52,017 bases of DNA from positions 1 through 52,017 of the forward strand of contig JAUCBJ010000952.1 of the NCBI GenBank assembly GCA_032718475.1, read 5' to 3'. The stretch is from Nemertoderma westbladi (lineage: Eukaryota > Animalia > Xenacoelomorpha). Every line of letters begins with the position of its first letter. Positions within the stretch are counted from its first letter, which is position 1. Shown in pieces: positions 19,201-52,017 of this stretch. A program made the translations under genes and the position numbers. The notes under the pieces are model-generated. The model worked only from the letters and a program-made list of their open reading frames with translations, had not been told where the DNA came from and did not search any database.

Positions 19201-21079
19201 ATCTCACCTTTTTTGAAAGCCTTGTAGGCTCTGTATAGGCTAAGAGCTTCTTTCTTTTCGCGGGTTGACTGAGTCGCCTCGTCCAGCATAAGTTCAAATG
19301 CATCGGGTTCAACAACCTTGGGTGGGTAAACGACAATTTCTCCCACCTTTGGTCCAGTCATAGCAAATGAATGATATGGATTCGATAAAGGATACCCTCC
19401 TTCCTGGTAGCGTAGTTGTTGATGGTTCGAACACATCGCCAATATCGGTTCAGGATTTTCCTTATTCAAACGCATCGGAATCGCATTTCGTTGTTCGCGC
19501 ATACAAGCACCACATTTGTAATAAAGTTTATAAACTGAAAAGGCTTCCTTCGTTTCTCTATCGTCCCCTCGAGTTCGTCTGTAAAGATGCATTCCATCAA
19601 ATTCATCGCGTACCGCAGGCATAGGTTCATGCGCCTTCAGGTATTGCATGGTATGATACAAACGACTAATTTCAGTATCAGGGTCTTCGCTAATATCTCC
19701 CGTATCACACAAATCGTCGTACGGGTAAAGTTCGATGAAGGTTTCGCGTAAACTTTCGATTCTTTCATTTAACGCGTTTTGTCTTCTCTTTATTACGATT
19801 GGGTCATATTTCGCTTTCGTCCTTCTGGGCTCCTCTCGGAGGCGCACCCACGAGGCGGACTTGTTTCCACCACCCCTGGGGCCAGTCCGACTGATGTTAT
19901 TATCACACCGGGCCGGAGGGTGGCCCGATGCTTCCCGGGTTCTGTTTTCGGTCCCCCGATCACACTGGCACAGCTCGTCGAACGTGTAGCCAGATGGGCA
20001 GCTACTGTCAACTTACTGTGGCCTGACTGTACATTGAGCCAACTCAAAGAGTCAACCGGCAGGTGGACCAGTCGATAGCGATCGAGCACCAAAGTCGCCC
20101 TTGGGCCTAACCGACGGTCTTGTCCCAAGCGGGCTTGCGCTACCCAACATTGGAATTTTGACACGTTTTCACCTGCCTCGCCGGCAGTATTGAGGGGACA
20201 CCATTCCTCAACAATACTGACTAGCTCGAAAGCTAGGAACAAGTAACCACTTACCCGTCCTGTACACGTGTACTCAACAGATGTTCACGAAATCAAGTAC
20301 ACAACGGTAAGCACAAAATCGAACACATACCATGCACACACAGATGACTTAATCGGGTAAGACAAAATCGGGGTCAAAATCGGGAAAGACAAAATCGGAG
20401 ACATAATCGACCAACCAACAAGTCGAGAGTAAACAATTGCCAGTAAACAAGTCAACTGGCAAGGGTTCCCATATTTACTCGCAGTGGCCACACATACAAT
20501 CACGTGTACTCACGTACCCACAGCAACAGAAAGCTCAAAGACCCAGACGGTTTATCCCAATGCCACCAAAGACCAATCAGCTGAACATGGAGACAATAAC
20601 ATATAGTATCAAAAAAACGGAACAGCTGATGGCCAATGGAACCATCCAAGCCCCAAGCAAACTGCCACTGATCGCCCACATACAAAACATAGTTCACGCC
20701 ACATGAGCCACAAATCACGCCATGCCACCACCCCTACTGTGTACAGGACTGGCAGTACGGCAACAGGCCGACTAGACGGTATCACGGCACCATGGCAATT
20801 CATGGTTCATTAGATACAAGGGCCTTCAGTGACTCCCTAGCACTATACTCGCAATTTAACGTGCCCCTAGACCCTCACGAGTCCACCGCCGCCTGTTAAG
20901 ACCACCCCTATAGAGACCTCACCTCTTTAGGTAGTCTTTGCGAATTTTGCTGTACTTTCTGATAATTCCTTTATACCAAATATAGTGTAGTCTTTAGCTC
21001 CAAATCGTTCGAATGGCGCTGCTGCTTCCTTTTGGATATCATATCCCCATCTCGGCTCTCCGCGTATCCCCTTCTCCAT
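16238..21079 (-). pseudogene. Extra ORF (ORF3) of copy A: Cys/His motif, DEDDy 3'-5' exonuclease, three CCHC knuckles, basic tail; disrupted
   Basis: ATG at 21079; pieces 19125-19817, 18964-19170, 17752-18939, 17029-17748 and 16238-17032. Motifs FYDNEG, TIQIRAADGVLHIF, VVKIGSGVRKDL, YVDTRPL, YYLAIES; CGKCGVAGHHSTKC, CGWCGDQGSHTFYTC, CTYCNIKGHRASEC. Confidence 0.8.
19818..20935. other. About 1.1-kb GC-richer insertion of unknown origin interrupting ORF3 of copy A
   Basis: Absent from copy B at 42065-42075. Flanked by CTTT on both sides. No recognisable domain. Confidence 0.75.
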
Positions 21080-21742: not shown

Positions 21743-23287
21743 TTATTTACTAACATTAGTTGGAGATTTGTAGTCTCCAGACTCGTTACGAGTCTCTTCA
21801 AGAAGTACGAGATGTTGAGTCGGTCTATCTACTGTACGACCGTCAATTGTCCGTACTGTCACAGTTCTTGTCACTCCATCCATAGATGGATGTGTGGCTA
21901 AAATTACACCTGTTATCCAGAAGCGTCTTTTTAGATTCACTTCTGCTAACAGCACATGATCTCCCGGCTTTAATGCACTGGTATTATTGTACCAAGTAGT
22001 TCTGGCAGAAATAGAGGGCAAATAATGGTTTTGCCATATTTCCCAGAATTTGTTAGCCAGTAGTTGCGTGATTTTCCACGCTTTTCTACCGTAGCTATCG
22101 CCTTCTATTGGAATAGAAATAGGCGTCAATGTTGTCGGTGCCTGCATTAGCAGGTGTGCCGGTGTTAAAGCAAATTGGGATTGTTTGTCATCGGGTACTA
22201 ATACTATTGGTGCGTGCTCATCGCGAATCTTATTATTGTAGCAATCTATCACCTTGTTTAATTCATCGTTGTAGTCGAATTGTCCGCCATGATTGATGAG
22301 ATGGCACAGGTTTACTTGGTTTCGCCAAGTCTCATTTTCGTTGAGGAGGTTGATTGTATTTTCCTCGTTGAATAATTGGTTAATATCGTCATTATCTGAG
22401 GAGTATGGTGTTCCCTCAGTTGTGGTTTCTCCCTCACTGATTTCTTCTTCCCATTCACTCACCTGATGTACCTTTTCTCGAGGGAGTCTTTCCATCAGTG
22501 TTCGACGGGAAGGTCCAGTGAAGTACCAACCTACTTTCGTTCTTCCCGCGTATGTTTGTAATGGTTGCGGTCGAGCAGGCCGTTTTTCTAATGTCTCTAG
22601 CGCCTCATGCGCATTTTGGCCAATCAATATCTGTACCCCTGGGTAGTCGGTGTTGAATCTAGGGATATCATGCTGCTGGGTAAAATGATCTTCATCCCAG
22701 TTATAAGGTTCCACTTGGCTGGTAGCAAAGTTCTTTATCGCCACCATTTTTACCGACCTTATGCTATGTTCTCCTAGTTCATCCTGGGGAGTGGACAATG
22801 CGCCTACATAGTAATCTGTAGCTACAGTGGATTTCCAAACCTGCATAATTCCTGAAATGTTCAACTTAGTTCGGAACTTGGGTTGTCCAGCAAAGATGTC
22901 TTTGGCTAGTTCTTTGTCGATGAATGTCCCTGTACTGCCGGAGTCAAGGAGGGCGTTTACTATAAAACTCTTACCTATCCCATGGAATCTCAGCTGCACC
23001 ACTGGGAATTCCGGGATTCCGACGTTGGAAGTTGGCGCTTTCCAAGATGGTGGTTGGTCTGGAATGGTTAGTTGCGTTTCGTTATTGGTTTCAGTCTCAT
23101 ACGTAAGCGCTCGATACACTGCGGTGTTTATCATATAACAGGATTCATTTTCGTCGGAGAAATCGTCCGTGTAAAATCCTTCCATCTCAGAGCTGTGGTC
23201 AGTGTCATTCACATCACTGAATTGGACATGTAGTTTGGGCTCACTTACCTGACTCGTGTGGGTTCCTTCAAATTCTGTGTGCAGCAA
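21743..23287 (-). pseudogene. Bel/Pao aspartic protease fused in frame to the integrase C-terminal tail (RT, RNase H and IN core deleted)
   Basis: LLDSGSTGTFI, ILIGQN and VGWYFTGP, then from 22211 PIVLVPDDKQSQFALTPAHLL...FWEIWQNHYL...DGVTRTVTVRT, almost identical to the end of copy B pol. Confidence 0.85.
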
Positions 23288-26200
23288 GATATGATGTTTT
23301 GCGTTGCACTTAGCGCACCTCGTGTCTTAGTAACAGGTCCGCCGTTGGAGTCCTTGTCAGAGACAATTATAACACAACCGCTTATCCCACATGACATCAC
23401 GTCTATCCTTTAGGGATTTCTTCAAGAATTCATCACATCCACTCAAACGATGGGGCCCGTCGCACAATGCACATTTGGGTTTGATGTTGCTTACCTTAAC
23501 TTGGGTTGTGTTATGCACACTTGTTCTTTCTTTGGGCTTTCTTCCATGAATTCTCTTAGGAGACATGGTAGGAGTTACCTGTTCTCTCCTGTCACTGGTT
23601 CGAGACTTAGATTTACTTACGTCTTTCTGTGTTTTGTTGACATAATAAGATTTTCGGTGTCTTTCCCGCTGTTCTCCTCGTGGGAGGTCTGGCTTTCGCC
23701 GTCGTCTGTATAACACACTGGTGTTACCTTTCTCCTAGAAGCGGGTTTTTCACTCACCTTGTCGCCGGTGTCTTCTCTCGGGACTGCTTTAGGAGCTGCA
23801 ATCTTACCTCTCCTTTTAAGAATGACATGGGATCAGCCATGGTAGGGTCTCTTTGTTGCTGGTCCATCATATAGAGAACTTTTTTGTCCCAACGCGTACC
23901 TACTCCACCCTTTGGCAAAGTAGATGCTACGGCTCAAACAACCATGGAACTCTGATATTCATGAGACTTACCTAACCAATCTAGTTGTCTACAGATCTCC
24001 TGAATCTCATCGGAAAACTCTATAATCCCGCTGCTAAGGAACTTTCGGGGCGCTACTAATTTCGCATACAAATACCTAGCTATGTTAGTCCTATTACCAT
24101 ACCTGATGTTTAGTTTATCCCAAACTTTTCTTAATCCATCTGGATGTCCAATAAACTTTAACGCCATTAAATTGGGAGGTCCTTCCTAGCACTCGATGAG
24201 GAATCTAAGTTTCTCTCCATGGGATAGTACGGAACTCTGTATGTTATCTTTATAATATTAATTAAAAGGTAACCATTTCATCTCATCTCCGTTGAACTTG
24301 ATGATCTCTCCCACCTTTACCGCTTGACGGGCTTCGATTCTAGCCATTTGACGCGTAAAACTTTCTTGGGCCATCGTATTATTTAATATCGAGTTATCGG
24401 TATATAAATTTCTCGGATTAGGATCAGGTCTATATGGAATATCATTATTAACGGGTTTATAATTAACCTTAATAGGGTTCACTATAGGAGTTTCTACTTC
24501 ACTAGCAGTATAGATGCGTGTAGGCTCCACACCTTGCGCATGAAATACTTCAGACCTAACAGGTTGACACATTGTTACAAGGGGTGGTGGTATACCCAAT
24601 TGTATATTTACTAATTTATCGCGTTCTAACGCGATACTCTGCTGCACTTCTTGCAACTCTAACCTACCCTCTCTTACTGTTCCCTTTAACTGCTGAAAAG
24701 TCCCTTCCAACTCTCGGACCTGTTGGGAGGAACGTATTCGATATTCCTCCAGCTGCCCGAGCAGGAGATCCATCCCCTGCCGTCCCTCATCCACCCACTC
24801 TACCGCCGAAGCGGGAGCCACCAACATGGTAGCGGGTAGACGAGGGACGACGGGCGACAAATCGTTTATGTCTTGCTTGGCGTCCAGGACCGGGATTGAA
24901 TCAGGGGCTGCTCTACTGGGAACAGGTAGTTTAGTACTGTGCAAAGGGAATTTAGAGTTAGGTTCTGGAAGTACAGGGGTCTCTATCACGGAGGGAGTGG
25001 CTTCGAGAACAGGCCTAATTAATTCAGGCTCATCTACTTTAGTAGGGAGTCTTTCTACTCTAGTAATTTGGTCTGTAGGCTCAGGATTACTTAAGTCTAC
25101 ACTAGCTAGTTGCCTTCTCACAGCCGGAGGCAAGTTAGGCAACTTTTGCTGGTGTGGCGCTCTTCTACGTCCGCTGGAACGAGATTTATTTCCTCTACCT
25201 TCAGGATCCGTTGTATCGCCTTCATCAGAGGAGGTAAATCCCTGTCTTCTGGAAGTAGATCGACTCAGCATCTGCATCTGAGCAGCTGTTCTCTGTTTAT
25301 TTAATTAATCTTGCTTCACTTGAAGATTTTCCAACTCTAGTTGGGCTGTCTCTTCAGATGCCTTCCGTTCTGCTTCTACCACTGCCTCTGCCACTTTTCT
25401 TTCAGCTTCTGCCGCTGCCACTGCCGCTGCCGCTTTTCTTTCAGCTTCTGCCGCTTTTCTTTCAGCTTCTGCCGCTGCCACTGCCGCTGCCGCTTTTCTT
25501 TCAGCTTCTGCCACTGCCACTTTTCTTTCAGCTTCTGCCGCTGCCACTGCCGCTGCCGCTTTTCTTTCAGCTTCTGCCGCTGCCGCTGCTGCTGCTTTTC
25601 TGTCTTCTATTTGTTTTTTCTTTAGCTGCTCTTCTTGTTCCATAGCGATAAAGATGCTTTCATCAAATTTAGCCTGCTCCGCGGCTAATATTTCCGCATC
25701 TAATGAGTCTAACACAAATTTGTCTCCCTCACTATTAGGGTGAAGTCCAGCTAGCCATCTCCTTAATTCTTTGTCACCTATAAATCATTGATAGTCTGAC
25801 AGATAGATGTCAATAGCATCCTTCTTCTGAGGTTTCTCGGATATAGCTTCGCTTTCCACCTGAGAAAAGGTAGCGTCTGTTGACTCTCCATCGTCATGCG
25901 CTCGGTTAGCTGAACTTTCCATAGTGTCGTTCCCTGGACTTTAAGACTCACCCGTTGGAACCAAGTTTTTATAGCCACTTGCAACGACGTGTTTTGGCTT
26001 CTCTTCGAGGCTTCCTTAAAGGCTGAGAGGATTAGTCTGATCCGTAAAATTCGTTCTCGCACTTGATAAAGCAGTTCTCCCTGCTCTTGAGGTCCTTGTC
26101 GTTGTTGAAACAGGTGTTCCTCTAATCGCTCCAAAGAGCTGAAGAATCCCTGGACAAATCCTGCTGCCGACCTCTTCCACACAGCTGGATCTCGAGTGTC

Positions 26201-26773
26201 CCTTATTACTCCCATCCTGTATAAGTCCTCCCAGGCCGCTTCCGATAAGTTAAACGGGAGTCCGGGTCCGGGGAAGTTCCATTGTGTCTCGACAATAGAC
26301 TTCAGTTCCTCCATTGTGTATCCCGCATAACTGTCCTTGGTCGATCACTTACTTCTCGCCCAATCGATTTGATGTTCTTCCACCGCAATCAATACTCTCG
26401 TGAGTACGGCTCCAGGAAGAATTAGAAGTGGGTCTGGATAAACCACTTCTGTCATCCTTGCTCCAATCTCGGGTGTCAACTCTACAGTGTCTGAACTACT
26501 AGAGTTATCGGGCCGCTGAGAAATAAGTTTCTGGTTCGGGTGCTGCTGCTGTTTAACAGCTGCCTCTTGGTCCCGCTTGACTTGAGCCCTAGTGCCTATG
26601 ATAGACCTATGGTGCTTTACTAGCCTAGGGTCTGATACTACTACTGTAGGGATGACCTTTCTTACAGTAGGAGGGGACTTGGACTTCGGTCTCAGATTTT
26701 CTATACTCCTATCTGAGTCACAGACTGTTCTTTCTAGGAGACTATCTGACAGTGTTTGTTTTGTGTCAGCCAT
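23288..26773 (-). pseudogene. Bel/Pao gag of copy A (many stops and frameshifts)
   Basis: Coiled-coil AEAERK repeats; IIKFNGDEMKWLPF and VWDKLNIRYGN (DUF1759-like); Pao knuckles CALCDGPHRLSGC, CYNCL and CAKCNAKHHILLH. Confidence 0.8.
25365..25600 (-). repeat. Coding minisatellite encoding (AAAEAERK)n in copy A gag
   Basis: Repeated TTTTCTTTCAGCTTCTGCC / GCTGCCACTGCC units. Confidence 0.9.
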
Positions 26774-26906
26774 GTTTGATTTTTCAGTTGAATGCCTACT
26801 ACTATAACGACAGTTAAATAAGTCTAGTAATTCAGTATCCACTGTAAGCAAGTAATCAGTTACCGATACTGTCACTCAGTGTAACGTGATATATATAATA
26901 TATTAG

Positions 26907-35938: not shown

Positions 35939-37148
35939 TATTGGAAGAGACAGCAACGTACCCTGCAATATCCTACTGTAAAGTCTGAGAATCAAACGTA
36001 ATCCAACCTTCTCACCAAAACAGTAAACTCTAAGTAAGCGAATATATTGCAGTATCGGTCTCTTATAACCGGTGAGGCAGAAAACAGTCTACGAATGGAC
36101 AAACTTCGATAAAACAAAATCCTGCGCAGCGAACCTAAATCAGGCTGACTCACTGACGGACTAAGGGCGCTCGTATACTTTGCCGCGGTGTGATTTATAT
36201 GCGGTGAGAGATAGAGAGACGCTAACTACAAATAACTAGCGGGCAAAGCGCAGTATGGACAAAATTATTTTATATATTTTGTATATTTCGAGGTATAAAT
36301 AATTTCTAACGCGTGTGTGTCTTGATTCTAACGATCAAAATCAGTTTTAATCCTTCACATATATAATTACTGGGTCCGGTGTACATTTTATTCTAATTTT
36401 GTAACTTGTAGGTCCAATACTCACGAATGATAAGGCTCCTTCCCCTTTTGTGTATTTCCAGGACTCAAATTCAGGGATAGGGTTAATACTACGCCCAGAA
36501 TTCGGCAATTTAATTTACCAGGTCCCTAGTACTAAGAAGAAATGTGTTAGTTTACTACAGTAGGCGTACAGTTACGAATAGCTGGCCTGGCGTCCTATCT
36601 AGAATTTTGGTTGCCTAGGTGGGCACGGCAACTTCCTATCAGGATGTCGGCGGGGACACGGTAGATGTTAGTATCCCTAATAGCCTTAATTTATTTGCGC
36701 CTAGCAATAAACTGCCCTACCGCCTGAACGGCACAATCTCAATTCAGGTAAAACACAGTAACCCTTCTGGCCTACAAGTTCTAACGCAAATGGACACCGT
36801 TGTACTACAAACAGCCACCGACGCACCTATACCTAGCAAGAGTTAGGCGTACAGCTTGCTGCACCCTACCAATGTGTATGCCTTGTACTGGTGTGCCTGC
36901 GTCCTATCTGTGTACTAGTATCTCTCTGCCTGCTCTCTCCTCCCCATAGGAATGTGATGGTGTACTGCGGGTTTTCTCTGAATTAAGACAGTACAGTCCC
37001 TAGATGTAATTTTTGGCATACAGCGTGTCACTACCTCTACCTTCGATCTTTGGTCTCACACTTGGGTAGCAAGGCATCGAACGCTGTCTAACCTTTCAGG
37101 CGATGGGCGAATAACTAAGAATGATATTGTGGGTTGTCTCCTCTTACA
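35939..37148 (-). repeat. 3' LTR of copy B (minimal extent; may extend to about 38563)
   Basis: The left end is fixed by identity with 51992-52017. Candidate inner end TCTTACA|TTCCCCCG is minus-strand CGGGGGAA|TGT, a typical Bel/Pao PPT junction. Confidence 0.7.
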
Positions 37149-37579
37149 TTCCCCCGATGTTCTCGTCTACCGCTGCGGTCCGCTCTCTAGCCAGCCATCT
37201 GTCCCTCAGTTGGGTTCACCGTAGTGAAGCATAGTAAAAAGGGCAGATATAACAAGTATTTCTTAACTTTATTACAAAATAACTAATATACAATAAATGT
37301 AACAAGAATATGCTAATCTAGAGTGTTGTGTAGTTAGATTGAGGTATCTAGTACTATAATTAATGAACGAAATCGCACCTTTTATAGCAAATTTGTGCTG
37401 CAAACAATCGAGAACATTCCATGAATTATATTGGATTTTAAAGATAACTATTGGTCCAGCAAACACATATCTTACACAACATTGGTTACTATCAAATAAC
37501 TGCAATTACATTGGTTAATCTACCTAAGTGCATGCAATTAAACTGTAGCGGTCAATTTAAATTAGTTGAAATTCAGCAC

Positions 37580-37663
37580 AAAAAACAATTTGCACCTGCT
37601 AGGATTTGAACTCTATACCTACTAGACAAATTTCCAGCGCATAAACGACTGAGCTACTGAACC
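37580..37663 (-). ncRNA. tRNA-like Pol III cassette in copy B
   Basis: Minus strand GGTTCAGTAGCTCAGTCG...CTGGA-AATTTG-TCTAG stem...GAGTTCAAATCC...TTTTTT; orthologous to 15273-15356. Confidence 0.55.
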
Positions 37664-38578
37664 ACTTGAATAACATTGTACAAATAGACATGGTAAATAC
37701 AAATGAGAACTTAATGTAATTCTTTTAACAAGTTTATTCCAACAAAATAAAATTTTCGAAAATCCACGGCTTTGTGAGGATATAATTCTATACCGCTCCA
37801 TGAAAACAGGATATTATCGTACATAAAATATACGGTTTTCACCAATAATCAATCAAATTATAGAATACTTAGGGCGTACCTACATATTTACAAATTAAAT
37901 TTCAAACAATACTTCCTTTCTATGTAATAATTCGATACAAAATAATTACAAATTCAAACTTTACATATTTAAGGCTTTACTAAGTAGGTACAATATAAAT
38001 CTAAATTAAATTCACCAATATAAATCTATTGCATCTCGATATTGCATAAATTCAAATAATTACAAATACAAATAAATGAAAATCATAAGAAAGGCTCGCG
38101 AGTCTTCCATCTACTATTGCATCTCAAATATTGCATAAATTCAAATAATTACAAATACTTTCGTGCCTAAATATAGATTGCATAAGTTCGGAATAATTAC
38201 AAATATGAGTCTTTCTAAGTACAAAACTTTCTAACTATAAAACTTTCTAAATACAAAATATAACGCTTTACAAATGAAACTATAAGAAAGGCCCACGAGT
38301 CTTCCGTCTACTCTTACTTTCTATTTCACTGTAAATACAATACTGCTCATAAGATATAAATTGCATAATATTCGGAACAATATAAATTGCATAAGTTCGG
38401 AATAATCACAAATATAAAATATAAATCTTGCAAAATATAACTTCCTTCTAAATATAAATCTTACTAAATATAAATTTTACTAAATATAAATCTTACAAAA
38501 TATAAAACATATAATTCAAATAAATCACAAATTCACAAGAAAGGCTCACGAGTCTTCCGTCCACTCTTGCCCTCCCTT

Positions 38579-41500
38579 TTACCGCTTTGTTGACCGAGCC
38601 CTGCCGCGTCCTCGAAAACTGCGTACAGGTGACTTTGCTTGCGATATGGAACTTGTGGGACGAGTCACTGGTTTCGCTTGGACGTTAAGAGACGGTGTTA
38701 CCATTTCCTCACAAATTCGTCTATTAGGTATCCCGAAACCTCGTCCGATTCCTCGTGACCGATCAGTTGTCACTACAGTTGGTAAAACGTCTGGGAATGC
38801 GCGAGAAGCGGACGACGCAGACCCAAGAGTAGCTTGCGCCCCCTTTTGATCAGCTGGTGTATGTCCCAATCCTCCTGTTGGTTCTCTAGGAAGCGATACT
38901 GTATCCCGAGTAATTCGAATAGTCGGCTCAACTCCCTTGCGTTCTTCTATATTAATGGCTTTCTTTAATTGTTGGCCCACTTTCTGGACCCTTATGATCC
39001 TACCCTGTCCGTCCTCCCGAGGGTGACGTGCAGACGGCGCAACCGGGGTAGCTGGTATGTCGCCTCTAGGACCTCCTCTTCCTCGAATACGCTCGCTCGT
39101 ATACGTTTATGGTAGAACGCGGCTCGGTACGCCCATGCGATTCACCATAAGTGATACGATTAACGACTTTCTGAAAATTCCATGTATTCTTATTGTCCGG
39201 GTGAATCTGTAGTAAATACTCGCATACAACTCTGAATCCACTATCGTGAGGCAAAATATCGACTACCTCGATAAGTTCGTCATATTGGGGCATAGCGGAG
39301 ATATATCCTTCCGACATCATAGTTTGAGGATTTACCGCCCAAAATCCAAGATGCGCTCTCATCGGGAACCGTCTTCTTTGCGCCGATACGTGTTCGTCAG
39401 CTAAATCTTCCCAATCGTCGAATAGTTTTCTCACAAGTTTTACAGATTCGTGTTCATAAGGTATGTCTCGTAGTTGGCATTCAGATGCTCGATGTCCCTT
39501 TATATTGCAGTAGGTGCACTGAGCCATAAATCTCCAGCAAGTATAAAAGGTATGAGACCCTTGATCTCCACACCATCCACAGATTAGTTGAGTCGTAGTA
39601 ATGTGCTTTCCACTGCACTTTGTCGAATGATGTCCAGCGACGCCACATTTACCACACATCGTATTGGCAGGGTACCATACTCGTTCATATATAAGATCTC
39701 CAATTGGTCGAGCGCTTCCTCCCACACTATAATCATAATCATCTGGATCGATAGGTTGGTATGTTTCAGAAGGTTGTATGCAAACTACAGCATCTGTTGC
39801 TTCTAATTGTAGAATCTCCGTCTGAGATTTCTTCAGGAGGTTCCTTTCAATCTCAAGAAGTTCCTCTAGAGGATCACCAATGATCGTCGTCGTTACTTCG
39901 AAATCATCACCAAGGTGATGATATAAATCATAATTCATAGAGTAACAATGTAAACATAGATGGTCTTTCGATAAGAGATCCCGCACAGCGTAGATACACG
40001 TCTCAAAATATACTAAATCCTGCTCGAGTAAAGGCATTGCACTGAGCGTCGGAATTGTAGAAGGGTTCGAGAAATCGTCTAAACACGTCGGTATGAATTC
40101 TCCCTTCCATGTAGAACGTATGATCTTCTCCAAGACAAAGTGGATGTCTTTTAAGAGTCCGAGACACAATGTCGGCGATTAAGCAAACATTCACTGACGA
40201 CTCTATCGCTAAATAATATTGTAGTACCACTCTTGGAGGTGACATAATAGCCCAATACACGCATCCTCTCCATTTGAGCTGTGATTCAAACTCGTTTATA
40301 TCCGGAGTATCACCTTCTCCATACGTTTCGATATACTTGGTTCTCTTACTTTCCTTGTAATCCCAATTAAACATTAGGTAGGAAATATATCCAGTTCCAG
40401 TTTTCTGAGTATTATACTCACGAAAATATCCTTGTTCTATAGACCACAAGATAAGAGGTCGAGTGTCGACGTAAGGTGTCGGTAGTCAGTCATCTCTGTC
40501 CGTCATGCCGGCGAAGTCGCTAATTAAGTCCTCTCGTACTCCTGATCCAATCTTTACAACAGTTTTATCTAAAATCATATTTCTTACCATCTTCGGTAGC
40601 ATTCTAGCATCGATATTACAAGCTTGGTCCATCTTCTTTACTATATCAGTGATGAGATGGTGTCGCTTTGTATTTGTTGGAGGTATCGGCATTCGTTTGT
40701 CGCTCCTTTGTCTACTGAAAATGTGCAAGACTCCGTCCGCCGCTCTAATTTGTATAGTCTTAGAAGTCAGACTCTGTTGATGACTGCCACCCGCGTTATC
40801 GTAAAACATGTAACCATTTTCCTGGAACGATCTAAACGTTCTGTTCCATTCGTCCAACAATTCTTCCGAAGGTTGCCAAATCTTCTCGATGTCCTTTTCG
40901 TCCTCGAAACGAATGACTTTACCTTGCCAATCCGCAGCGATATCTGTATCTGACTCAAAGGTTCCTGTTCCAATCCATAAGCGAATTGTTCTGGTCAAAT
41001 ATCCTTTCAGGTTACTCGGAGCTATATCAGCGCCAGCTCTATCCAGTTCCCTAAAGTCTTGAATATGAGGTGGAACGTTATACACAACCTTTTGAGTAAT
41101 ATGTCTACGTAAATCATATATCTTACCCATATCGCTAAAAACAACTGCAGGAAGAAACTCCAAGTTTGAAATGATTTCTGGATGATCCACGATGGGTATT
41201 TCGTATGACGTATCCAGTCGGACTGGTATACTAATAGGGAAATTGAGTGTCGTACTCAATGGTTTCGTAGTCGAAGTACTATACGGTTGCATTTCTCTTG
41301 TCCTCTCCGGGGATGCAATCTGTAGCCTCTGAATAACATTTTGAGCACAGTTTATACTCTCAAAAACTTCCGGTGTCATCTCCTTAGCTGAAGTCTGATC
41401 GTGTGACGTCCAATGGTAAGGTAGGCTCGCGAGTCTTCCGCCCCATTCTTCCATCTCACCTTTCTCGAAAGCCTTGTAGGCTCTGTATAGGCTAAGAGCT

Positions 41501-42210
41501 TCTTTCTTTTCGCGGGTTGACTGATTCGCCTCGTCCAGCGTAAGTTCAAATGCATCGGGTTCAACAACCTTAGGTGGGTAAACGACAATTTCTCCCGCCT
41601 TTGGTCCAGTCATAGCAAACGAATGATATGGATTTGATAAAGGATACCCTCCTTCCTGGTAGCGTAGTTGTTGGTGGTTCGAACACCTCGCCAATATCGG
41701 TTCGGGATTTTCCTTATTCAAACGCATCGGAATCGCATTTCGTTGTTCGCGCATACAAGCACCACATTGATAATAAAGTTTATAAACTGAAAATGCTTCC
41801 TTTGTTTCTCTATCGTCCCCTCGTGTTCGTCTGTAAAGATGCATTCCATCAAACTCATTGCGTACCGCAGGCATAGGTTCATGCGCCTTCAGGTATTGCA
41901 TGGTATGATACAAACGACTAATTTCAGTATCAGGGTCTTCGCTAATGTCTCCCGTGTCACATAACGCGTCGTACGGGTAAAGTTCATTGAAGGTTTTGCG
42001 CAAACTTTCGATTCTTTCATTTAACGCATTTTGCCTCCTCTTTAATACATTCGAGTCATATTTCGTTCTCGCAAGTTTTGCCGTACTTTCTGATAATTCT
42101 TTTATACCAAATATAGTATAGTCTTTAGCTCCAAATCTTTCGAATGGTGCTGCTGCTTCCTCTTGGATATCGTATCCCTATCTCGGCTCTCCATGTATCT
42201 CTTTCGCCAT
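38579..42210 (-). pseudogene. Extra ORF (ORF3) of copy B: Cys/His motif, DEDDy exonuclease, three CCHC knuckles, RG-rich tail; disrupted
   Basis: ATG at 42210 is in frame with 40486-42003 and 40003-40449 across single stops (42178-42180, 40486-40488). Knuckle region 39066-39920 and tail 38579-38980 (RGIGRG, RGRGRAR). Colinear with copy A. Confidence 0.82.
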
Positions 42211-42874: not shown

Positions 42875-45800
42875 TTATTTACTAATATTAGGTGGAGATT
42901 TGTAGTCTCCAGACTCGTTACGAGTCTCTTCAAGAAGTACGAGACGTTGAGTCGGTCTGTCTACTGTACGACCGTCAATTTTCCGTACCGTCACAGTTCT
43001 TGTCACTCCATCCATAGATGGATGTGTGGCTAAAATTACACCTGTTATCCAGAAGTGTCTTTTTAGATTCACTTCTGCCAACAGCACGTGATCTCCCGGC
43101 TTTAAAGCGCGAGTATTGTTGTACCAATTTGTTCTGGCAGAAATAGAGGGCAAATAATGGTTTTGCCATATTTCCCAGAATTTGTTAGCTAGTAGTTGCG
43201 TGATTTTCCACGCTTTTCTACCGTAGATATCGCCTTCTATTGGAATAGAAATAGGCGTCAAAGTAGTCGGTGCCTGCATTAGCAGGTGTGCCGGTGTTAA
43301 AGCAAATTGGGATTGTTTGTCATCGGGTACTAATACTATTGGTCTAGTATTTAGTATTGCCTCGATTTCAACAAACAATGTGGTCAGTTGGTCGTCTGTC
43401 AATATGTGGTTTACTGGAATGACCTTTGCCATTGCCGTTTTGATAGATCTAATCAATCTCTCCCAGACTCCGCCTCTCCATGGACTATCTGGAGGATTAA
43501 ACTTCCAAACAATCTTGTAAGGACGTAGTTCATTTGAGATTTGATCGTGATCTAATTTCTTAAAGGCTCTAGCAATTTCATTTCGAGCACCAACAAAGTT
43601 TGTACCTTGGTCTGAGTACAAGCATTTTACTAGTCCGCGTCTAGCGATAAATCGCCGCAATGCTAGTATAAACGCGTTGGTGGAAAGATCCATCACACGT
43701 TCAATATGAACTGCCCTACTGGACATACATGTGAAAATCAGTCCCCAGCGTTTTACTAGTATACGACCATGTTTCGTATGTATGGGACCAAAGCAGTCAA
43801 TTCCAGTCTCTGTAAAAGGTGGTCTGAATGCTTGAAGTCGTGCTTGTGGAAGTTCACTCATTTCTTGGGTACCTATTCTAGAGTGTACCTTTTTACAAAT
43901 AATACACGTACGCGTCACTGAACTTAACGCTTTACTGGGTCTAATTAATACAAATCTTGTACGTAAATAAGAAAGACAGTGGTGTCTTCCAGCGTGTTTC
44001 AGATGTAAATGTGCGTCCAGTATCATTGCACGTTGTAATTCGTGATGCTGCGGTATTATTATTGGGTACCTAAAGTTAGTGTTAAAGTCAATGTTTTGAA
44101 GCCGAGATTTATGACAAATTAAGCCATTATAAATTATCGGACTCCAACTCAATATTGGTGACGACTTAATTGGTTGACCTTGACTTATAGATGTGAATTC
44201 GCGTGCGAAATATCGCAATTGGTAATGGCGAATTAATTTAATTTCACATCTGTCTATCTCAGTCAATGTAAGTCGACGTGTAAAGTCGCGTTTGCCTTTA
44301 ACGTATTGTACAAAACGTACAATCCACGCTAATTTTCGGCAAGCGTTTGTCCAAGAATCTGTTAGGTTTACAATGCGGTCGACGTAAGTATTTGTGACGT
44401 CATCAGGTAAGTCAATGGAGAATTTGGAAGGTTTTGATTTACTAGAAGGGCCCACGGGTCCGCCGGTAAGTATTCCCTTGTTGACTGTTGATCCGTCCGG
44501 GTCTACAAGTAATTTGTCCTTCTTTGTCTTCTTACCTTGATTGTCGGTACTTTGTAAGTCGATCCCTAATGGTGGTTTTAACTCTACGGGATCACTGGGT
44601 TTTGGTAAACTTATTTTTCTGCCGATATTAATCCCAGGTCTCACTGTAGGTTGCAAGTTTGGTATGTCTCTTGAGCGTAAAGTAACACCTGTATTTACAT
44701 TTGCGTAGGTACTACCCACATCTGTAATACATGAGGTTTCACTGTACTTATGGTTACTCAAGGGTGTCAAGTTTGGTAGTTTGTCAATACAAGGCCGCTC
44801 CAATAGGGAAACTGCGGCTTTACTGTTTGTCAATATGTTACTAGTGTCTTGTTGATCATTTTGTGATATGTCTGGCAAAATGTTTCGCGGAACATCCGGC
44901 GAAACGTCTAGTGACATGGATGGCAAAACGTCTGGTTGACTGTCTAGTAACACGTCTGGTTGACCATCTGGTAACGCGTCTGGTTGACCGTCTGGCGATA
45001 TGTCTTGTTTTGAAAGGCTCGCAAGTCTTCCCTTCTTGACCTTTGAAGTTATATCTTTCCATTTCGCCTTCGGTTTTTTCTTAAGTTTAGCCGCCGTCCT
45101 TTTCTTTGCTTTCCCTTTCTTTGGTTTTTTAATTTCCGCATCTTTAGGGATAGTGTTAGACTTGTTGTCGTATAGTGGCGGCCAATGTAGTGTTGATCTT
45201 TGCAAGAATTGTGGTCTGTGTTGCCAAAATTCTTTGTTTTCCAGTTTACAGAATTCCTCAGGCATCATTCCTCGTGACGCAATATCAGCTGGATTTTGTG
45301 ATCCGGGACAATGTCGCCAATCTTCCTTTATTGAACGGTCCAAGATTTCCGCACGACGGTTAGCTACGAATGTCTTGAATTCAAGTGTGTCGTTGTTTAT
45401 ATAGAATAAAACTAACGTCGCGTCAGTCCAATAAAATATCTGTAAACTTGACTGTAGTTCAGTCTGTATGAGGTTTACAATGGTAGTTGACAGAGTTGCT
45501 GCTTGTAGTTCAGCGCGTGGTGTCGTCATATACTTAGTAGGCATGGTCTTAGCCTTAGAAGTAATGAGCGAAACATCAAACTCGTCTGAACCTACTTGTC
45601 TGCACAAATACACTGTCACTCCAAAGCCGTTGTCACTGGCGTCGGAAAAACAATGTAATTCTAAGTTGTCAGGAAATGTCATCTGTAATGGAAAATATAC
45701 CCGGGGTATGGAATAGTCTTCTAATGAAGACAATTGCGCCTCCCAAGTTATCCATAAGTCTACTTGTTCTGATGAGATCGGTTTGTCCCATGTGAGTCCA

Positions 45801-46720
45801 TCCTTCCAAATACTGCGCATGAATATTCTCGCTTGCAGTATTATTGGGCTGATGAAACCCAATGGATCGAACAATCGACTCAATTTTGACAAGCAGGACC
45901 TCTTTGTCAGAGTGTTTCCTTGAGTGTCCAGTCTCACCTTCACTCGAAAGTTGTCCGTGTTTGGGTCCCAAAAGAACCTCAACACCTTTGTCGTCGGTAG
46001 TGGTTCGAACTCCAGGTCAATGTCACCACCTCCACGCTCAGTCATTCCGAATGAATCTACTAATTCGGCACTGTTTGAGGCAAACTTGGTGAGGTTAAAA
46101 CCTCCGCCCGCTAAGCAGTCCCGTAATTGATGTGCTACTGTGATAGCACGTTCTACTGTGTCACAACTTTGTAACCCATCGTCTACGTAAAAGTCTTGTT
46201 CTACGATCCGAACTTCCTCTGGGTCATATATATGTTTCTGATCCCTAGCGGTTTGCTTTAGGGCATACATAGTACAATTTGGGCTGTCTCTGGCACCGAA
46301 AACGCGAACTTGCATTTGGTAAGTCGCCAGTGGTAGACTTAAGTCTCCTTCCGGGTACCAGAGGAACCTCAAACTGTCTCTGTCTCGCTCTAACGCTCGC
46401 ACTTGGTGAAACATAGCTTCGACGTCACAAGTAAAGGCTACTTGACGCTGACGGAAGCGCATAATCACCCCCATGAGATAATTATTCATGTTTGGTCCGT
46501 CCATCAACTCACTATTGAGGGACATTCCCTCAAACAGAGCCGCGCAGTCATTTACTATGCGTACTTTGTCTGGTTTATCGGGGTGTCTCACGTAGTGATG
46601 TGGCAAATAGTATGTCTGGTCTGTCACAATCTCTGGGTTAGTCATTCTGATAGCGTATCCCTTCGTTAAATACGTCTCCATCTGGGTATTATACTGCAGA
46701 TGGGCTTTCTCGTCCTTCAA
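42875..46720 (-). CDS. pol: Bel/Pao pol: reverse transcriptase, RNase H and integrase (open for 1281 codons)
   Basis: YLPHH, KVRIVND, DVEAMFHQV, FGARDSP, FYVDDG; HCFSDAS, PRAELQAA, WTDA, NPADIASRG; H-x4-H...CxxC, GIDCFGP, YSDQGTNF, GGVWERLIRS. Confidence 0.95.
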   Translation of the reverse strand: MKDEKAHLQYNTQMETYLTKGYAIRMTNPEIVTDQTYYLPHHYVRHPDKPDKVRIVNDCAALFEGMSLNSELMDGPNMNNYLMGVIMRFRQRQVAFTCDVEAMFHQVRALERDRDSLRFLWYPEGDLSLPLATYQMQVRVFGARDSPNCTMYALKQTARDQKHIYDPEEVRIVEQDFYVDDGLQSCDTVERAITVAHQLRDCLAGGGFNLTKFASNSAELVDSFGMTERGGGDIDLEFEPLPTTKVLRFFWDPNTDNFRVKVRLDTQGNTLTKRSCLSKLSRLFDPLGFISPIILQARIFMRSIWKDGLTWDKPISSEQVDLWITWEAQLSSLEDYSIPRVYFPLQMTFPDNLELHCFSDASDNGFGVTVYLCRQVGSDEFDVSLITSKAKTMPTKYMTTPRAELQAATLSTTIVNLIQTELQSSLQIFYWTDATLVLFYINNDTLEFKTFVANRRAEILDRSIKEDWRHCPGSQNPADIASRGMMPEEFCKLENKEFWQHRPQFLQRSTLHWPPLYDNKSNTIPKDAEIKKPKKGKAKKRTAAKLKKKPKAKWKDITSKVKKGRLASLSKQDISPDGQPDALPDGQPDVLLDSQPDVLPSMSLDVSPDVPRNILPDISQNDQQDTSNILTNSKAAVSLLERPCIDKLPNLTPLSNHKYSETSCITDVGSTYANVNTGVTLRSRDIPNLQPTVRPGINIGRKISLPKPSDPVELKPPLGIDLQSTDNQGKKTKKDKLLVDPDGSTVNKGILTGGPVGPSSKSKPSKFSIDLPDDVTNTYVDRIVNLTDSWTNACRKLAWIVRFVQYVKGKRDFTRRLTLTEIDRCEIKLIRHYQLRYFAREFTSISQGQPIKSSPILSWSPIIYNGLICHKSRLQNIDFNTNFRYPIIIPQHHELQRAMILDAHLHLKHAGRHHCLSYLRTRFVLIRPSKALSSVTRTCIICKKVHSRIGTQEMSELPQARLQAFRPPFTETGIDCFGPIHTKHGRILVKRWGLIFTCMSSRAVHIERVMDLSTNAFILALRRFIARRGLVKCLYSDQGTNFVGARNEIARAFKKLDHDQISNELRPYKIVWKFNPPDSPWRGGVWERLIRSIKTAMAKVIPVNHILTDDQLTTLFVEIEAILNTRPIVLVPDDKQSQFALTPAHLLMQAPTTLTPISIPIEGDIYGRKAWKITQLLANKFWEIWQNHYLPSISARTNWYNNTRALKPGDHVLLAEVNLKRHFWITGVILATHPSMDGVTRTVTVRKIDGRTVDRPTQRLVLLEETRNESGDYKSPPNISK

Positions 46721-46755
46721 TAAACGTTGTCGTATTGAGTTTAGACGTCTTAAAG

Positions 46756-49700
46756 CTAGCGGATAATTGTTTGTCTGATAGTTTCTGTTAATCTGATAGT
46801 TTTCTCCGTTAATTCTTTGTCTAGTGCAGCTTGTTCCACCTGACAGTGTCTTAAGGTTTCGTCTTCTACGGGCGTTGTTGAGGTCATTGGTTGAGGTAGA
46901 CTCTCAAGCCTTCCGGCGTCATCATCTATCGTTGATGGAACCTCTGTCTGACTCCGCTCCTTCTCAAGTTCTACGCTCCGCTGGTGGATTTGCTGCTCCT
47001 TGTGACTTATCATACTCACTACACATGTCGTACTTGTGTCCTTGTTGTGTTTTGTCACTTGTGTAGTATGGTCTTTGTCATGTGAAAAGGAATGAATTGA
47101 AGTTGTAGTTAATAAACTACATGTACTTTGTACATCATCCTCTTCGTCACTTATATCTAGTGTGCGCACAGGCGCTCGAGTAAACCAACCTATCGGCATT
47201 CTTCAGGCGTATGCATTTCCTGCTACGACTACCGATGGTCTGGTTTCCCACACTTGATGTAAATTGAATTGATCTGTCCCGATCAGCATTGCTACCGATC
47301 TATAATTGACAGGACATTCAGGTACACCAAGGTGTCTGAAATACTTACGATCCTCTAAGGATTGTTCCGGCACTGGACCCAGTAGGTTACTAAAGTCCTT
47401 GGTGGCCGCAAAAGTCAAATCCTTAAAGGGTAACAAAGACCTCTCCTTTTCGCTGTGTTGCGATTTCGGAAGAAGAGTGTCTAAGTTTAACTTAACTCGT
47501 GTCACTGGTATTGCACGTTGTCCATGCATACTACTTATGGTGTAACTGACGTTCTTACCTTGTCGGAGATCCGTCACGACATCAGCTACCTTCTCATCCA
47601 CATAGCTGTGAGATGAGGCTGAATCCAGGATAGCGTAGATCCTTTTGCTCCCTTTGGTGCCAGTAATCTTAATAGGAATTACGCTGAAACCTTTTAGTTG
47701 ATCAGTCGTCAGAAGCGCGATCGATGGTTGTTCGTCTCCGACTGAGTATGCGTCGTCGTCCTCGGTTTCTTCGTCAGAAGACCCGGACTGCTCCGGAAAA
47801 CAATCCCGAATATGCGTCACAAAAGTTGGAGTCATTCTCGATTCACGATTCTTGTAGGCTGTATTACATTTCGCTGCTGCTTCCGGGTGTTCCCTAGTGA
47901 AGCGTTTGGTCGGCGTATGGCTGTCTGTATGGAGTAAGCCGTCGTGGTTGCGTCCACAGGAAGGACATGTGTCGGTATTTGGGCAGTCCTTACGGACGTG
48001 TCCGTGTTGCGTACACCGCCAACAAGAGTCCAATGGCCGTATCTGCAGCCATCGTTCTTCCGAGTTTAACTCGCGAAATAACCGACAACCTCTTAACTTA
48101 TGAGTGGTGTGCCGCTTGCCTAGCTGCTCGCAGTATTGGCAACCGCTAAAGACTGTGCTCAGTTGCTGTCTGGTCTGTTTTATCCCAATAGGTGCGGATA
48201 CTCTATTACCGTCCGAAAATTGTCGAGTTTCCGTCGGTGTAGCGTAAGTGGTGGATGTTGTCTGGGGTTTCTGTTGGTTCGAGGATGGTAAGGTTATTCC
48301 CTCCGCTACGATATGTTGGTCAGTATAGTTGGATCGCGTCTCTACCACCGCTTCCTTGGATATTAAAAGGTATATATCTTCCAGTTTTAAGAATCCACCC
48401 CTTTCTTCGTGCTGGAATTCGATCTTCCTCCATTCCCGACGAAGTCGATGGTGGAGTCTCCCTATGATCTTTAATAGGACTGTAGGAGTGTTCGCGTAGT
48501 CAAGTTGTCCAATTGAGCGTAGTGTAGTAATGGCGTTCTTAATCTCGTCAGCTAATTTCAGTAAGTCAACGGGTTTTGTAATAGCCCCCCCCCCCCCCCC
48601 CCCTTACAGAGTTCTTCTATCACTGACTTGGCCATACTGACTGTACCTCCGTGAATCGAAGTTAAGCGATCGTACGCTAGTTCGAAGGCGTCTGGTATTC
48701 ACACAGCGATCTGGGATTCAATGTAGTCCACGAACGTGTGCCAATGTTTGGAGCTACCGGAAAACTTAGGTGGTTGTTGCACCGGTAGTCCTTGTCTAGC
48801 TGCGAATTTCGCTATTTCCTCGGCAACATTCAAAGTTTCGCGTCCTTGTTGGGCAATCGAGTTGATGTTTTCTCTTCTTGGCGCTCTTCTTTGTTACAAG
48901 GTGTTTCCTGAGGGTTGCTTTCTTTGCTGCTTCGGGTGTCTAGAGTGTTCAAATTCGATGTTTCGCGAACTATCAGTTTGAGTTTCTTCTAAACGTTCCT
49001 CTATCTGGGCCAACTTGTCTACAACTGGTCGCATTAGATCGGCGAATTGTTGCGTGCTAATCGCGTCCGTTGGTTGTGATGCTTTCTGTGTTGGTGTATT
49101 TTGTGGAGGATTGTCGATAAAGGAATTATCTGAACGCTCACGTTTACATTCGTCAGCCCCTCCTGTTCTAAATACCTCGCGTTCCGGGTAATCCGATTCA
49201 CTCGAAGTACTACTATCACCTGGATACGGTGGCTGACGTGTTCGTGTCCATTGCGTCGTTCGAATTCTAACATTCCATTTCGGAACATCGTTCGCTGGTC
49301 TCCGTTGTTCGGTAGGCTCACGAGTCTTCCTCGAAGTCGTAGATTGCGATGTAAACTGGTTAAACGGTCGCGTTTCCACTGGTCTCTGTTGTTCGGTAGG
49401 CTCACAAGTCTTCCTCGAAGTCGTAGATTGCGATGTAAACTGAAACGGTGGTCGAGTGACAGCATTTGAATCAACTGGCCGTGTAGGTTTAAACGTCCTT
49501 GGGTACGTGTAGTGCGTAACGGGTTTCGGTGTCGAAGGTGGACTCACCTGTTTAGTTGTCAGTAGTGCAGGTCCAGTCAATAAACTACTACGATCGGTAA
49601 ACGGTGGGTTACTTACCTTGACTTTCAGAATAGGCGATGACGTTGCTCTTGGCGGTATGAACTTGTCCGGAATAACAAACCTGTGTTCCGTCGCACCATA

Positions 49701-51189
49701 TAATATATTACTACTACCCGCAATCGAAACAGGTTCCTTAGTCGTAATTGGTGCAAACATAGGAGTTACTTGTGGGAATCTTTGACATAAGTCTTTAACT
49801 AATTGTCGTTCTCGCCCAGGTGCTCCTACACTTCCTTCCTTCATTCGTTCCTGAATTTGGCGGTGCCTTACCTCTATCTGGTCCAAATCGTGTCCGTCTC
49901 GAGATCTCATCGATCGATCGCGGGCTTTAAGATCCAGATCTTCCTTGGCATTTGCTAATTCTCTCGCCTTCCTTTCAAGTTCGAAATGAAGTTTAGCTTC
50001 CTTTTCTCGTTGTTCCGTCTGTTGTTGTTGTGCCTCGAACTTCGCTTGTCGTATAGCTGACTGAGCCTTTATCTGTTGTTTCCTCAACTCGGCTCGAGCT
50101 TCCGAAACTCGCTTTTGTTCTTCCAACAGATAATTCTTCCAACTCAGCTGTTGCTGCTCGTTGCGCTAACTCAGCTGCCGCTGTTCGCTGTGCTATTTCT
50201 AGCTCTAACCTTTCCATCTCAGCTGCTTCTAGTTCTGCTGCTTCTTGCAGATGAGAGATTCTCGCAACATTTGCGACGCGTAGTTTCTCTTCCTCTACAG
50301 CTGCTTGTACCGTCAGTAGTTGAGTTTGTTCCTCAATTTCAAGCTGTCTGTAGAACTGTTGCTGTTGTTGAGAAATTTCTGACGTGACAATACTCACCTC
50401 GCCAATTTCGCTGCAAATACTCACCAGTGATTGATCTAGTATTCCCGGTGCCAGTTCGATTTGTGCGAGTGAAGTTTCCCTCGTAGCCTCCGGCACGGTT
50501 TCCCAATCTCCGACGTCTTCGCCGCACATACGTAAGTGATCCGTCAGATGTTTCAATTGTCCATCCAGCCTATACATTTCCTGTTCTTCCTCGGGTTGCA
50601 ATAATTCGTCCGAAACTGACTCACCTAACAACTGGTCCACTTGTTCCTGTTGTATGTGTCTAATGGTCGACTTAAACTGAATCAGTTTCTCCCTGGCGAT
50701 CATTAATTTCTCGAGGATTCGAAATTGCGTGTCCGCATCCTGTCTTTGTCTAGCTAAATCTTGTAGACTGATTAGGTTATCTACGGACTTATGTACTCTA
50801 CTTTGTACTCTCACCTGTAGAGTGTAGAACTCGAATCGGGACATCGGAGCGGTCAACTCGTCTAATATGCGTTGGCCTTCTCCAATACTCCTGGTAATGT
50901 GCGCCATGTATCCACCGACGCTTCTAACAACGCTTTCCTGGCTTCCTACTGAACTTACCATGTCCGTTTCCCTGTATCTAGGTTGCGGAACAGTTAGAAA
51001 GTCCTCGGTCCTGCCGTCGCCTCGTACTACGGCATCCGGTACTCCCGTTGGATGTACTGGTGACGCACACGGCGTAGGTTCGGTAGGCTCACGAGTCTTC
51101 CCCTGTGGTTCTTCCGCTGCTGACCTATCCGCGTCACATGAGTCATAGTCGGTAGGTGTATTCTTCGTATAGTCTTGTTTGTCACTCAT
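46756..51189 (-). pseudogene. gag: Bel/Pao gag-protease of copy B (frameshifts and stops)
   Basis: ATG at 51189; coiled coil; knuckles CWRCTQHGHVRKDC and CPSCGRNHDGLLH; protease ILDSASSHSYV, MLIGTD. Lesions near 50126, 48350-48900 (including a poly-C run), 47203 and 46770. Confidence 0.85.
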
Positions 51190-51269
51190 TTCGGTAGTTG
51201 TAAGTCAAGTGAGTGTCAAAGTATCGAATTTACCGTATTTATATCAAAAACGGTACTAATTACAGTCAT

Positions 51270-51951: not shown

Positions 51952-51991
51952 TGGTCCTACTGAACCGTAGTTCAGTAAAACACATTCCTAC
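51952..51991 (-). promoter_or_regulatory. Non-canonical primer-binding region: GTAGGAATGTG followed by a 12-bp c(UACG)g hairpin and CCA
   Basis: Directly abuts the 5' LTR end at 51992. There is no TGG-starting PBS on the sense strand. Confidence 0.55.
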
Positions 51992-52017
51992 TATTGGAAG
52001 AGACAGCAACGTACCCT
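51992..52017 (-). repeat. Inner end of the copy B 5' LTR (truncated by the window)
   Basis: 26 of 26 bases identical to 35939-35964. Confidence 0.9.

Follow-up and report, generated by a model that had tools for sequence, protein, structure and literature searches.

A selected accessory gene with a putative exonuclease domain and a shared in-frame UGA in a Bel/Pao retrotransposon family of Nemertoderma westbladi

The stretch of DNA analysed here (the window) spans the 52,017 nucleotides (nt) of contig JAUCBJ010000952.1 of Nemertoderma westbladi (assembly GCA_032718475.1). It contains a long terminal repeat (LTR) retrotransposon, element B, and a related element, A, both of which carry a large third open reading frame (ORF3). 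We conclude that ORF3 is a genuine accessory gene, under selection and distinct from env, of a Bel/Pao family with many copies. Judged from its motifs, the product of its upstream frame likely works like a DEDDy-type 3'-5' exonuclease, and an in-frame TGA separates this frame from a downstream part with three CCHC zinc knuckles. ORF3 of B lies on the minus strand, in the same sense as pol, and runs from an ATG at 42210 to a stop at 38579, between pol (46903-42875) and the polypurine tract (37155-37149) with its adjoining LTR (37148-35939). The features of B are as follows.

51992..52017, minus strand: inner end of the 5' LTR (26/26 nt identical to 35939-35964; the remainder lies beyond the window)
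46756..51204, minus strand: gag-protease region, in several pieces (from frames and Pfam)
42875..46903, minus strand: pol, a single open frame of 1,342 amino acids (aa) with reverse transcriptase (RT; YVDD), RNase H (DASD), integrase and DUF5641
40006..42210, minus strand: upstream frame of ORF3, 735 codons from the ATG to the shared stop (stops private to B at 42180 and 40488)
41674..41766, minus strand: CxxC..CxxH motif, a possible zinc site (no meaningful family match)
40201..40929, minus strand: putative 3'-5' exonuclease domain of DEDDy type, some 243 aa in length including two long insertions (ExoI Asp at 40800, ExoII Asp at 40530, ExoIII YxxxE ending at 40201)
40003..40005, minus strand: in-frame TGA common to B (40005) and A (17754), also in contigs of four sequencing runs
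38579..40002, minus strand: downstream part of ORF3, with an acidic stretch, three CCHC knuckles and a basic arginine-glycine (RG) tail; in frame with the upstream part in A
39477..39656, minus strand: the three CCHC knuckles (39656-39615, 39581-39537 and 39518-39477)
38092..38558, minus strand: three copies of a 17-nt motif just past ORF3 (38092, 38289, 38542)
41423, 42574, 45015, 49314, 49398 and 51085, minus strand: the other copies of the 17-nt motif in B
37602..37656, minus strand: tRNA-like sequence with A-box and B-box, situated in the 3' untranslated region (A has it too, at 15349-15295)
35939..37148, minus strand: 3' LTR, 1,210 nt, with the polypurine tract directly before it

Those of A are listed separately.

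21743..26875, minus strand: 5' half, where a broken gag-protease unlike that of B is fused in frame, near 22211, to the final 155 aa of the B-family integrase
16238..21079, minus strand: ORF3 region, broken by a 1,121-nt insertion (20944-19820), by frameshifts of 1 nt at 19171 and 17037 and by stops at 18966 and 16495; the shared TGA is at 17754
17752..18963, minus strand: unbroken frame of 403 aa holding the whole putative exonuclease (the query in most searches)
13598..14823, minus strand: 3' LTR, its ends set by eye from the alignment with B
21441, 19171, 17632, 16195 and 15949, minus strand: copies of the 17-nt motif

Coding constraint on ORF3 was computed on ungapped A/B alignment blocks comprising 1,095 codons. 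The ratio of nonsynonymous to synonymous divergence (dN/dS) is 0.151 at a dS of 0.26 (156 synonymous differences over 717 sites, 97 nonsynonymous differences over 2,553 sites; Fisher p 2e-46), a value that reveals purifying selection. In the open frame the ratio stays at 0.01-0.27 across all blocks, and in the other frames it is mostly 0.9-2.4: of the 14 off-frame block values, 12 lie around 1 or higher or come from blocks without synonymous change, and in one frame the short 5' block falls to 0.47. Each part of the gene is significant by itself (Fisher p 4e-7 or lower), with ratios of 0.13-0.18 by block in the upstream frame, 0.14 in the exonuclease, 0.11 in the knuckle block and 0.27 in the tail, as against 0.19 at the end of pol. 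B is shorter than A by 41, 49 and 4 nt at about 39930, 39140 and 39062, and block lengths put the downstream part at an estimated 500 codons or so. An overlapping frame open from 40178 was rejected as coding, with 1 synonymous and 8 nonsynonymous A/B differences.

ORF3 is also widely represented in sequencing data. Contigs from four of four runs, drawn from three studies, cover 30 of 30 bins over 38400-43600 (4,768, 1,939, 2,978 and 144 contigs per run; one run may be the source of the window). Contig depth was not taken as copy number; so many variant contigs nevertheless point to many copies of the family. Because no single listed contig joins pol to ORF3, their linkage rests on A, B and the unbroken cover. 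Some contigs represent natural deletion forms that skip, as DNA, either 40040-42083 (the upstream part) or 39122-42268 (most of ORF3). The absence of any membrane segment in ORF3 (top 19-residue hydropathy 1.5) argues that it is not env, and an env-like gene with signal peptide and membrane anchor was dismissed as a candidate. The first-pass annotation of this DNA, made from the letters alone, had located a third ORF, other than env, after pol and before the 3' LTR, in the position that env-like genes usually occupy; coordinates and hydropathy bear this out. The dN/dS near 1 across copies that would have counted against that annotation is likewise not seen.

On its sequence features, B is a Bel/Pao element, as that annotation had proposed. 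LTRs stand at both ends, a GGGGGAA polypurine tract directly precedes the 3' LTR, which begins TGT, and domain matches and motif order give the pol order protease-RT-RNase H-integrase with Pao-type domains (Pfam: Peptidase_A17, 6e-42; DUF5641, 4e-20; Integrase_H2C2, 1e-4). From 5' LTR end through gag-protease, pol, ORF3 and a 1.4-kb AT-rich region to polypurine tract and LTR, the element measures about 17.3 kb, assuming LTRs of equal length. By eye, no primer site starting TGG was seen downstream of the 5' LTR (51992), where Belpaoviridae would carry one matching tRNA-Arg or tRNA-Gly. Four pol relatives (28-31% identity) yielded no ORF3 match, three of them being too short to judge. Both LTRs of B terminate in TA rather than CA (35939-35945 and 51992-51998), and the 3' LTR of A terminates in CA. 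Between RNase H and integrase, pol of B contains a low-complexity stretch of about 200-300 aa (44430-45100) with a basic run, PDxx repeats and one copy of the 17-nt motif. The tRNA-like sequence found in both copies could be a fixed SINE remnant or an RNA polymerase III promoter; neither ARAGORN nor Rfam called it, no tRNA gene was found, and an Rfam scan of 35000-52017 returned 0 matches.

The claim that both copies carry the same element holds for ORF3 and the 3' region but fails for the 5' half. The gag-protease of A shares only 21-26% identity with that of B, in two stretches; A is devoid of RT, RNase H and most of the integrase, and has in common with B only the last 155 integrase codons, ORF3 and the 3' region. 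No 5' LTR of A was found in the window. A keeps ORF3 despite its foreign Bel/Pao gag-protease and absent RT and RNase H, and may be a non-autonomous recombinant. The 1,121-nt insertion in its ORF3 (19820-20944) has no second copy in the window.

Several observations suggest that the upstream frame encodes a divergent exonuclease. All the motifs reported in the first pass are present (TIQI at 40758, LPKMVRN at 40599, EDL at 40533, YVDT at 40473, YW at 40257 and YYLAIE at 40218, with FYDNE at 18555-18541 of A), and their order best fits the WRN/EXD2 branch of DEDDy nucleases. We scored the frames with profiles built from natural PF01612 proteins, a family chosen because the first-pass annotation had named it, so that the p-values test one named idea and not a library; the best solved relatives of the first profile are WRN, Mut-7 and EXD2. 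A 10-sequence WRN-like profile ranks the frames of B and A first and second among 186 window frames, via the ExoII block; 19 of 5,000 shuffled sequences do as well as A. A 52-sequence profile gives identical ranks for B and A, and 12 of 5,000 shuffles are as good. Whole-domain alignment, with long insertions allowed, three gap costs and 1,500 shuffles, scores A at 18.0, 17.7 and -3.1 by gap cost (3, 6 and 11 shuffles as good) and B higher (24.8 against the 18.0 of A); distant true members score 15-95. From 39 natural decoys one, P0003, was set aside as a true second exonuclease domain; A surpasses 38/38 of the unrelated remainder at two gap costs and 36/38 at the third. Of the 18,950 models of NCBIfam a single one matches, DnaQ epsilon, and it does so across ExoI (E 0.06 and 0.02); this is the only support obtained blind.

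MAFFT aligns the leading strand, the ExoI D-x-E, Q, K, the ExoII Asp, YVD and S-K with the family, and pairs WQGKVIRF (40929; absent from the earlier motif list) with the family strand preceding ExoI. For ExoI, the DNE of A (18549-18541) is in register, other settings picking an upstream EDE; the last residue is Ala in B, a private change, as 40793 differs in all contigs compared. The ExoII Asp, following the KxG strand, was aligned under every setting tried. Three of the four acids are in place in the A sequence, and the fourth is Glu.

A number of results weigh against the exonuclease identity. The ExoIII motif reads YxxxE instead of the family YxxxD, and the register of its Glu is unstable, falling on the family Asp in 4 of 12 full-length MAFFT trials and in the whole-domain alignment. 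Profiles built on RNase D, on PolA or on a mixture detect nothing, and at the stiffest gap cost A reaches a z of 2.8 and is outscored by 2 unrelated decoys. No PF01612 match appears at E up to 10. Two word searches, confined to targets of length 221-706 and 309-986, produced no homolog, nor was there a match in Pfam, PHROGs, PDB sequences, phages, or viral or metagenome contigs. One match among 1.84 billion proteins, P0001, was discarded as a spurious hit to a C2-repeat protein. Atlas features point to no nuclease, matches to DUF6532, DUF6698 and NRDD (0.82-0.87) being at chance level. The hhalign probability is 4.8%, and an unseeded single-sequence fold has a predicted local distance difference test (pLDDT) score of 32. 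Seeding the fold with 12 rows of the family that reach as far as the S-K motif, in an alignment picked from 24 local trials, raises pLDDT only to 44, with the ExoIII part below 40. Foldseek matches this seeded model to EXD2 (1e-4, template modelling score 0.3, root-mean-square deviation 17), a result that depends on the seed and shows compatibility only. The DnaQ-like fold proposed in the first pass draws weak support, its Foldseek matches being confined to the seeded model; the DEDDy identity is supported by motif order, but no standard library recovers the domain at threshold. On balance, the domain probably adopts a DnaQ-like exonuclease fold, and, should it do so, catalytic activity is the somewhat better guess. 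We do not file the protein as a member of the family.

ORF3 had been described as a single ORF of about 1,200 aa, rebuilt from two copies with different lesions. The private breaks of A and B do differ, but the TGA is common to both and is not a lesion peculiar to these two copies. It interrupts the presumed single ORF, dividing the 735-codon frame (zinc motif and putative exonuclease) from the roughly 500 codons with three knuckles and a basic tail, so that plain translation does not fuse nuclease and knuckles. Within the TGA no alternative letter reaches 1% in any run (49, 23, 48 and 11 contigs), and over 39960-40060 the four runs show one place variable at 1% or more, 39991, outside the stop. 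Contigs lose rare variants, and the invariant TGA therefore describes the common state, beside which rarer states may exist. The private stop of B at 40488, by comparison, differs in 97-100% of the depth. That A and B acquired the stop by independent mutations was rejected, given its presence across run contigs.

The frame of A continues past the TGA into the knuckles, and selection acts in one frame on both sides of the stop. Between the TGA and the next ATG lie 15 codons in which 3/3 A/B differences are synonymous; on this thin evidence, translation of the segment, by readthrough or by a splice, is favoured over re-initiation. A conserved in-frame stop followed directly by coding selection is what readthrough would produce, the second half of this signature resting on three differences. 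A/B divergence is lower near the stop (14/388 nt versus 88/1,100), which we did not use as evidence, divergence being patchy element-wide. Speaking against readthrough, the base after the stop is G (UGA-G), and a search for unusual 3' structure, which covered neither pseudoknots nor long-range pairing, was negative (z -0.7 to +1.9 in stretches of 76-200 nt), so that neither stimulatory context nor structure is apparent. Two forms of an RNA-handling protein, one short and one long, are the likely products of the element. Readthrough of the UGA is the likeliest route to the knuckles, at about even odds against a separate message.

As noted in the first pass, three CCHC knuckles and an RG-rich tail follow the exonuclease motifs. 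The spacing is CX2CX4HX4C in the outer two knuckles (39656-39615 and 39518-39477) and CX2CX5HX4C in the middle one (39581-39537). The Pfam zf-CCHC score is 17 bits, below the cut-off of 20.8. The tail frame of 175 aa contains 25 Arg and 19 Gly residues, with 7 RG dipeptides.

The 17-nt motif (for example 38092-38108) is near-palindromic with a CpG core. It occurs as 13 copies with at most one mismatch and one with three, all in one orientation and only inside A and B. At three mismatches there are 18 matches in total, of which 3 are the reverse reading of the near-palindrome and 1 is reversed at 46895; shuffles give 0.09. The sites are distributed over gag, pol, ORF3, spacer and 3' region and are read in two different frames, which argues that the motif is kept as nucleic acid. 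There is none in the foreign gag of A. The sense RNA can be drawn as a stem closed by a four-base loop, and the variants keep 6-8 of its 8 pairs, the stem being derived from the same sequences; the motif folds no better than shuffles and may equally well be a DNA site.

To place ORF3 among known systems, we compared it with published third genes and exonucleases. Juno and Vesta of bdelloid rotifers are gypsy-like, whereas the element described here is Bel/Pao. DEDDy ORF3s are published for Juno and Vesta and for Athena/Terminons (PMC5408684, PMC6431247 and PMC6338049). Like the gene described here, the bdelloid ORF3 is an exonuclease-like, non-env ORF after pol with no membrane segment and with one acid changed to Glu, as far as the cited passages of PMC5408684 go. 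The same passages set it apart by a DEED motif, as opposed to D-E-D-E here, by strong HHpred detection, as opposed to bare detection here, and by a text that describes neither knuckles nor an in-frame stop, both present here; no bdelloid or other relative came up in the homolog searches. For the bdelloid ORF3s that were sequenced (env, GDSL), these passages describe within-genome variation as neutral, whereas selection is clear here. The kind of gene is thus already known from bdelloid LTR elements, and its sequence-based assignment in a Bel/Pao setting was not found reported: the literature searched holds no DEDDy ORF3 in Bel/Pao, and subscription papers, Repbase, Dfam and supplements, which lay outside its scope, may hold one. 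The word 'exonuclease' occurs 0 times in the main texts of the BEL/Pao survey PMC3118150 and of PMC13524379.

B resembles Belpaoviridae/Semotivirus in its LTRs, polypurine tract, protease-RT-RNase H-integrase order, Pao peptidase and DUF5641, to judge from the relevant sections of PMC8742986 and PMC3118150. Members are described as 4.2-10 kb long, and the family profile of the International Committee on Taxonomy of Viruses names only env-like third genes (PMC8742986); B differs in its length and its non-env third gene. WRN, EXD2, Mut-7 (Nibbler) and bacterial stand-alone PF01612 proteins share the ExoII pattern LxxxLxDxxxxKxGxGxxxDL, the leading strand and a W..YxAxD-like end; the ORF3 product differs from them in its 11-21% identity, long insertions, YxxxE and lack of a Pfam match. 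The first pass knew of no DEDDy cargo ORF fused to CCHC knuckles; the layout does exist in cells, in Trypanosoma brucei RNase D (TbRND), a 3'-5' exonuclease followed by several such knuckles. According to the portions consulted of PMC7797062, the TbRND knuckles bind RNA and raise cleavage, and the enzyme acts on small RNAs. Unlike ORF3, TbRND is cellular, has four knuckles and is one continuous frame (same portions of PMC7797062); no sequence kinship was shown, and the likeness is probably convergence. A single in-frame stop between selected coding parts recalls SIRE1, whose env-like protein is made by stop suppression at pol-env, and Tca2, whose gag-pol UGA is bypassed with no working canonical signal (excerpts of PMC2194720 and PMC2829016). 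Unlike the stops in those excerpts, the one described here interrupts an accessory gene, with an enzyme-like domain on one side and an RNA-binding part on the other.

We tentatively favour a selected accessory gene whose likely divergent WRN/EXD2-type exonuclease at times gains knuckles through a UGA that is likely read through, a combination we hold with less than even confidence. The upstream frame would encode the 3'-5' exonuclease, and occasional readthrough would add three CCHC knuckles and the basic tail. The long form would grip single-stranded RNA while trimming it at the 3' end, with trypanosome RNase D as working model. The Mut-7/Nibbler class trims small RNAs in cells. As the same enzyme class does so, the preferred substrate may be a host small silencing RNA meeting the element transcript, with the element's own RNA close behind; docking of the long form on the 17-nt motif is a guess. 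Of the three roles offered in the first pass, proofreading appears unlikely, and the least likely, because the protein is separate from RT and its knuckles are of the RNA type. A different outcome of the same layout would be two accessory genes. One would encode an exonuclease-type protein of 735 aa and the other a knuckle protein, translated from a message of its own that is spliced or re-initiated; the frame they share would then be left over from an earlier fusion. This is unlikely but a serious contender: LTR-element ORF3s are typically separate spliced units (cited passages of PMC5408684), no readthrough signal was seen, and an in-frame ATG stands 15 codons past the stop in both copies. 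Moreover, the contigs skipping 40040-42083 as DNA lose the upstream part and retain stop and knuckles. It is countered by the synonymous differences ahead of the first ATG, small in number, and by the nearest AG at the stop, which is GAG, a rare splice acceptor.

Two further explanations question the enzyme itself. A protein with the exonuclease fold and no activity could serve as an RNA adaptor like the exonuclease-homology domain of Egalitarian (Egl), binding the repeated motif in the element RNA for transport, packaging or protection. In its favour are the altered fourth acid, the two long insertions and 14 same-orientation motif copies whose variants keep most of their stem pairs; the putative catalytic residues of Egl are dispensable (cited section of PMC13186709). 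We think this rather unlikely, given the ExoI D-x-E and ExoII Asp in A, the private nature of the ExoI change in B, and a hairpin that is drawn from the same sequences and not favoured over shuffles. Chance likeness would leave ORF3 an orphan gene under selection with some other fold, such as an anti-silencing protein that binds DNA in the manner of VANC, acting on the 17-mer via its zinc motifs. The blank threshold searches and the presence of the CpG-core motif in coding and non-coding DNA alike fit this idea, and VANC proteins target motifs repeated within the transposons they belong to (cited part of PMC5735166). Several separate motifs in DEDDy order, p of about 0.002-0.007 against shuffles and two independent libraries pointing to the DnaQ superfamily make it quite improbable. 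That ORF3 is a recently captured host gene or a nested passenger element with no function is scarcely credible and largely refuted by dN/dS. Nothing direct speaks for it, A merely holding an unrelated insertion in ORF3, and selection is as strong as at the end of pol, no intron-like gap separates A and B, no host homolog was found, no terminal repeats flank ORF3, and the element's own 17-nt motif is embedded in the coding sequence. The selected exonuclease-like accessory gene with its fixed UGA remains our preferred reading.

As a whole, the window contains the two related LTR elements, both on the minus strand and each inserted in a LINE-like RT remnant; such endonuclease/RT remnants lie at 11697-13597 and 35600-35938, and B is inserted just 3' of an ADDLA motif. 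A Mutator-like transposase in two frames (27748-30377; Pfam 3e-11 and 3e-33) is followed by tandem repeats of about 163 nt (31993-32757). A satellite array of about 87 units of 46 nt occupies 1670-6000, and an unbroken frame of 235 aa with a fibrinogen C-terminal domain (7468-8175; Pfam 3e-47) is likely a host gene or exon and, with the type of element, points to an animal as the likely host.

It is still not settled how animal LTR retrotransposons gain high copy number in the face of small-RNA silencing nor, since 2017, what part captured nucleases play. The present family offers three handles: a selected nuclease-like gene, a fixed stop, and a repeated element-specific motif as candidate target. 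The fixed stop, which would set the ratio of two protein forms, corrects the first reading of the gene and is, with the repeated motif, its most testable part. Should the fold assignment prove wrong, one is left with a large orphan gene that is under selection and has a fixed stop, odd in its own right. The most far-reaching possibility is self-addressed counter-silencing, in which UGA readthrough would arm the exonuclease with knuckles that dock on the element's own 17-nt signal, allowing it to trim host PIWI-interacting or small interfering RNAs there; we regard this as a long shot. If true, such a system would be an RNA-level counterpart of the plant VANC proteins.

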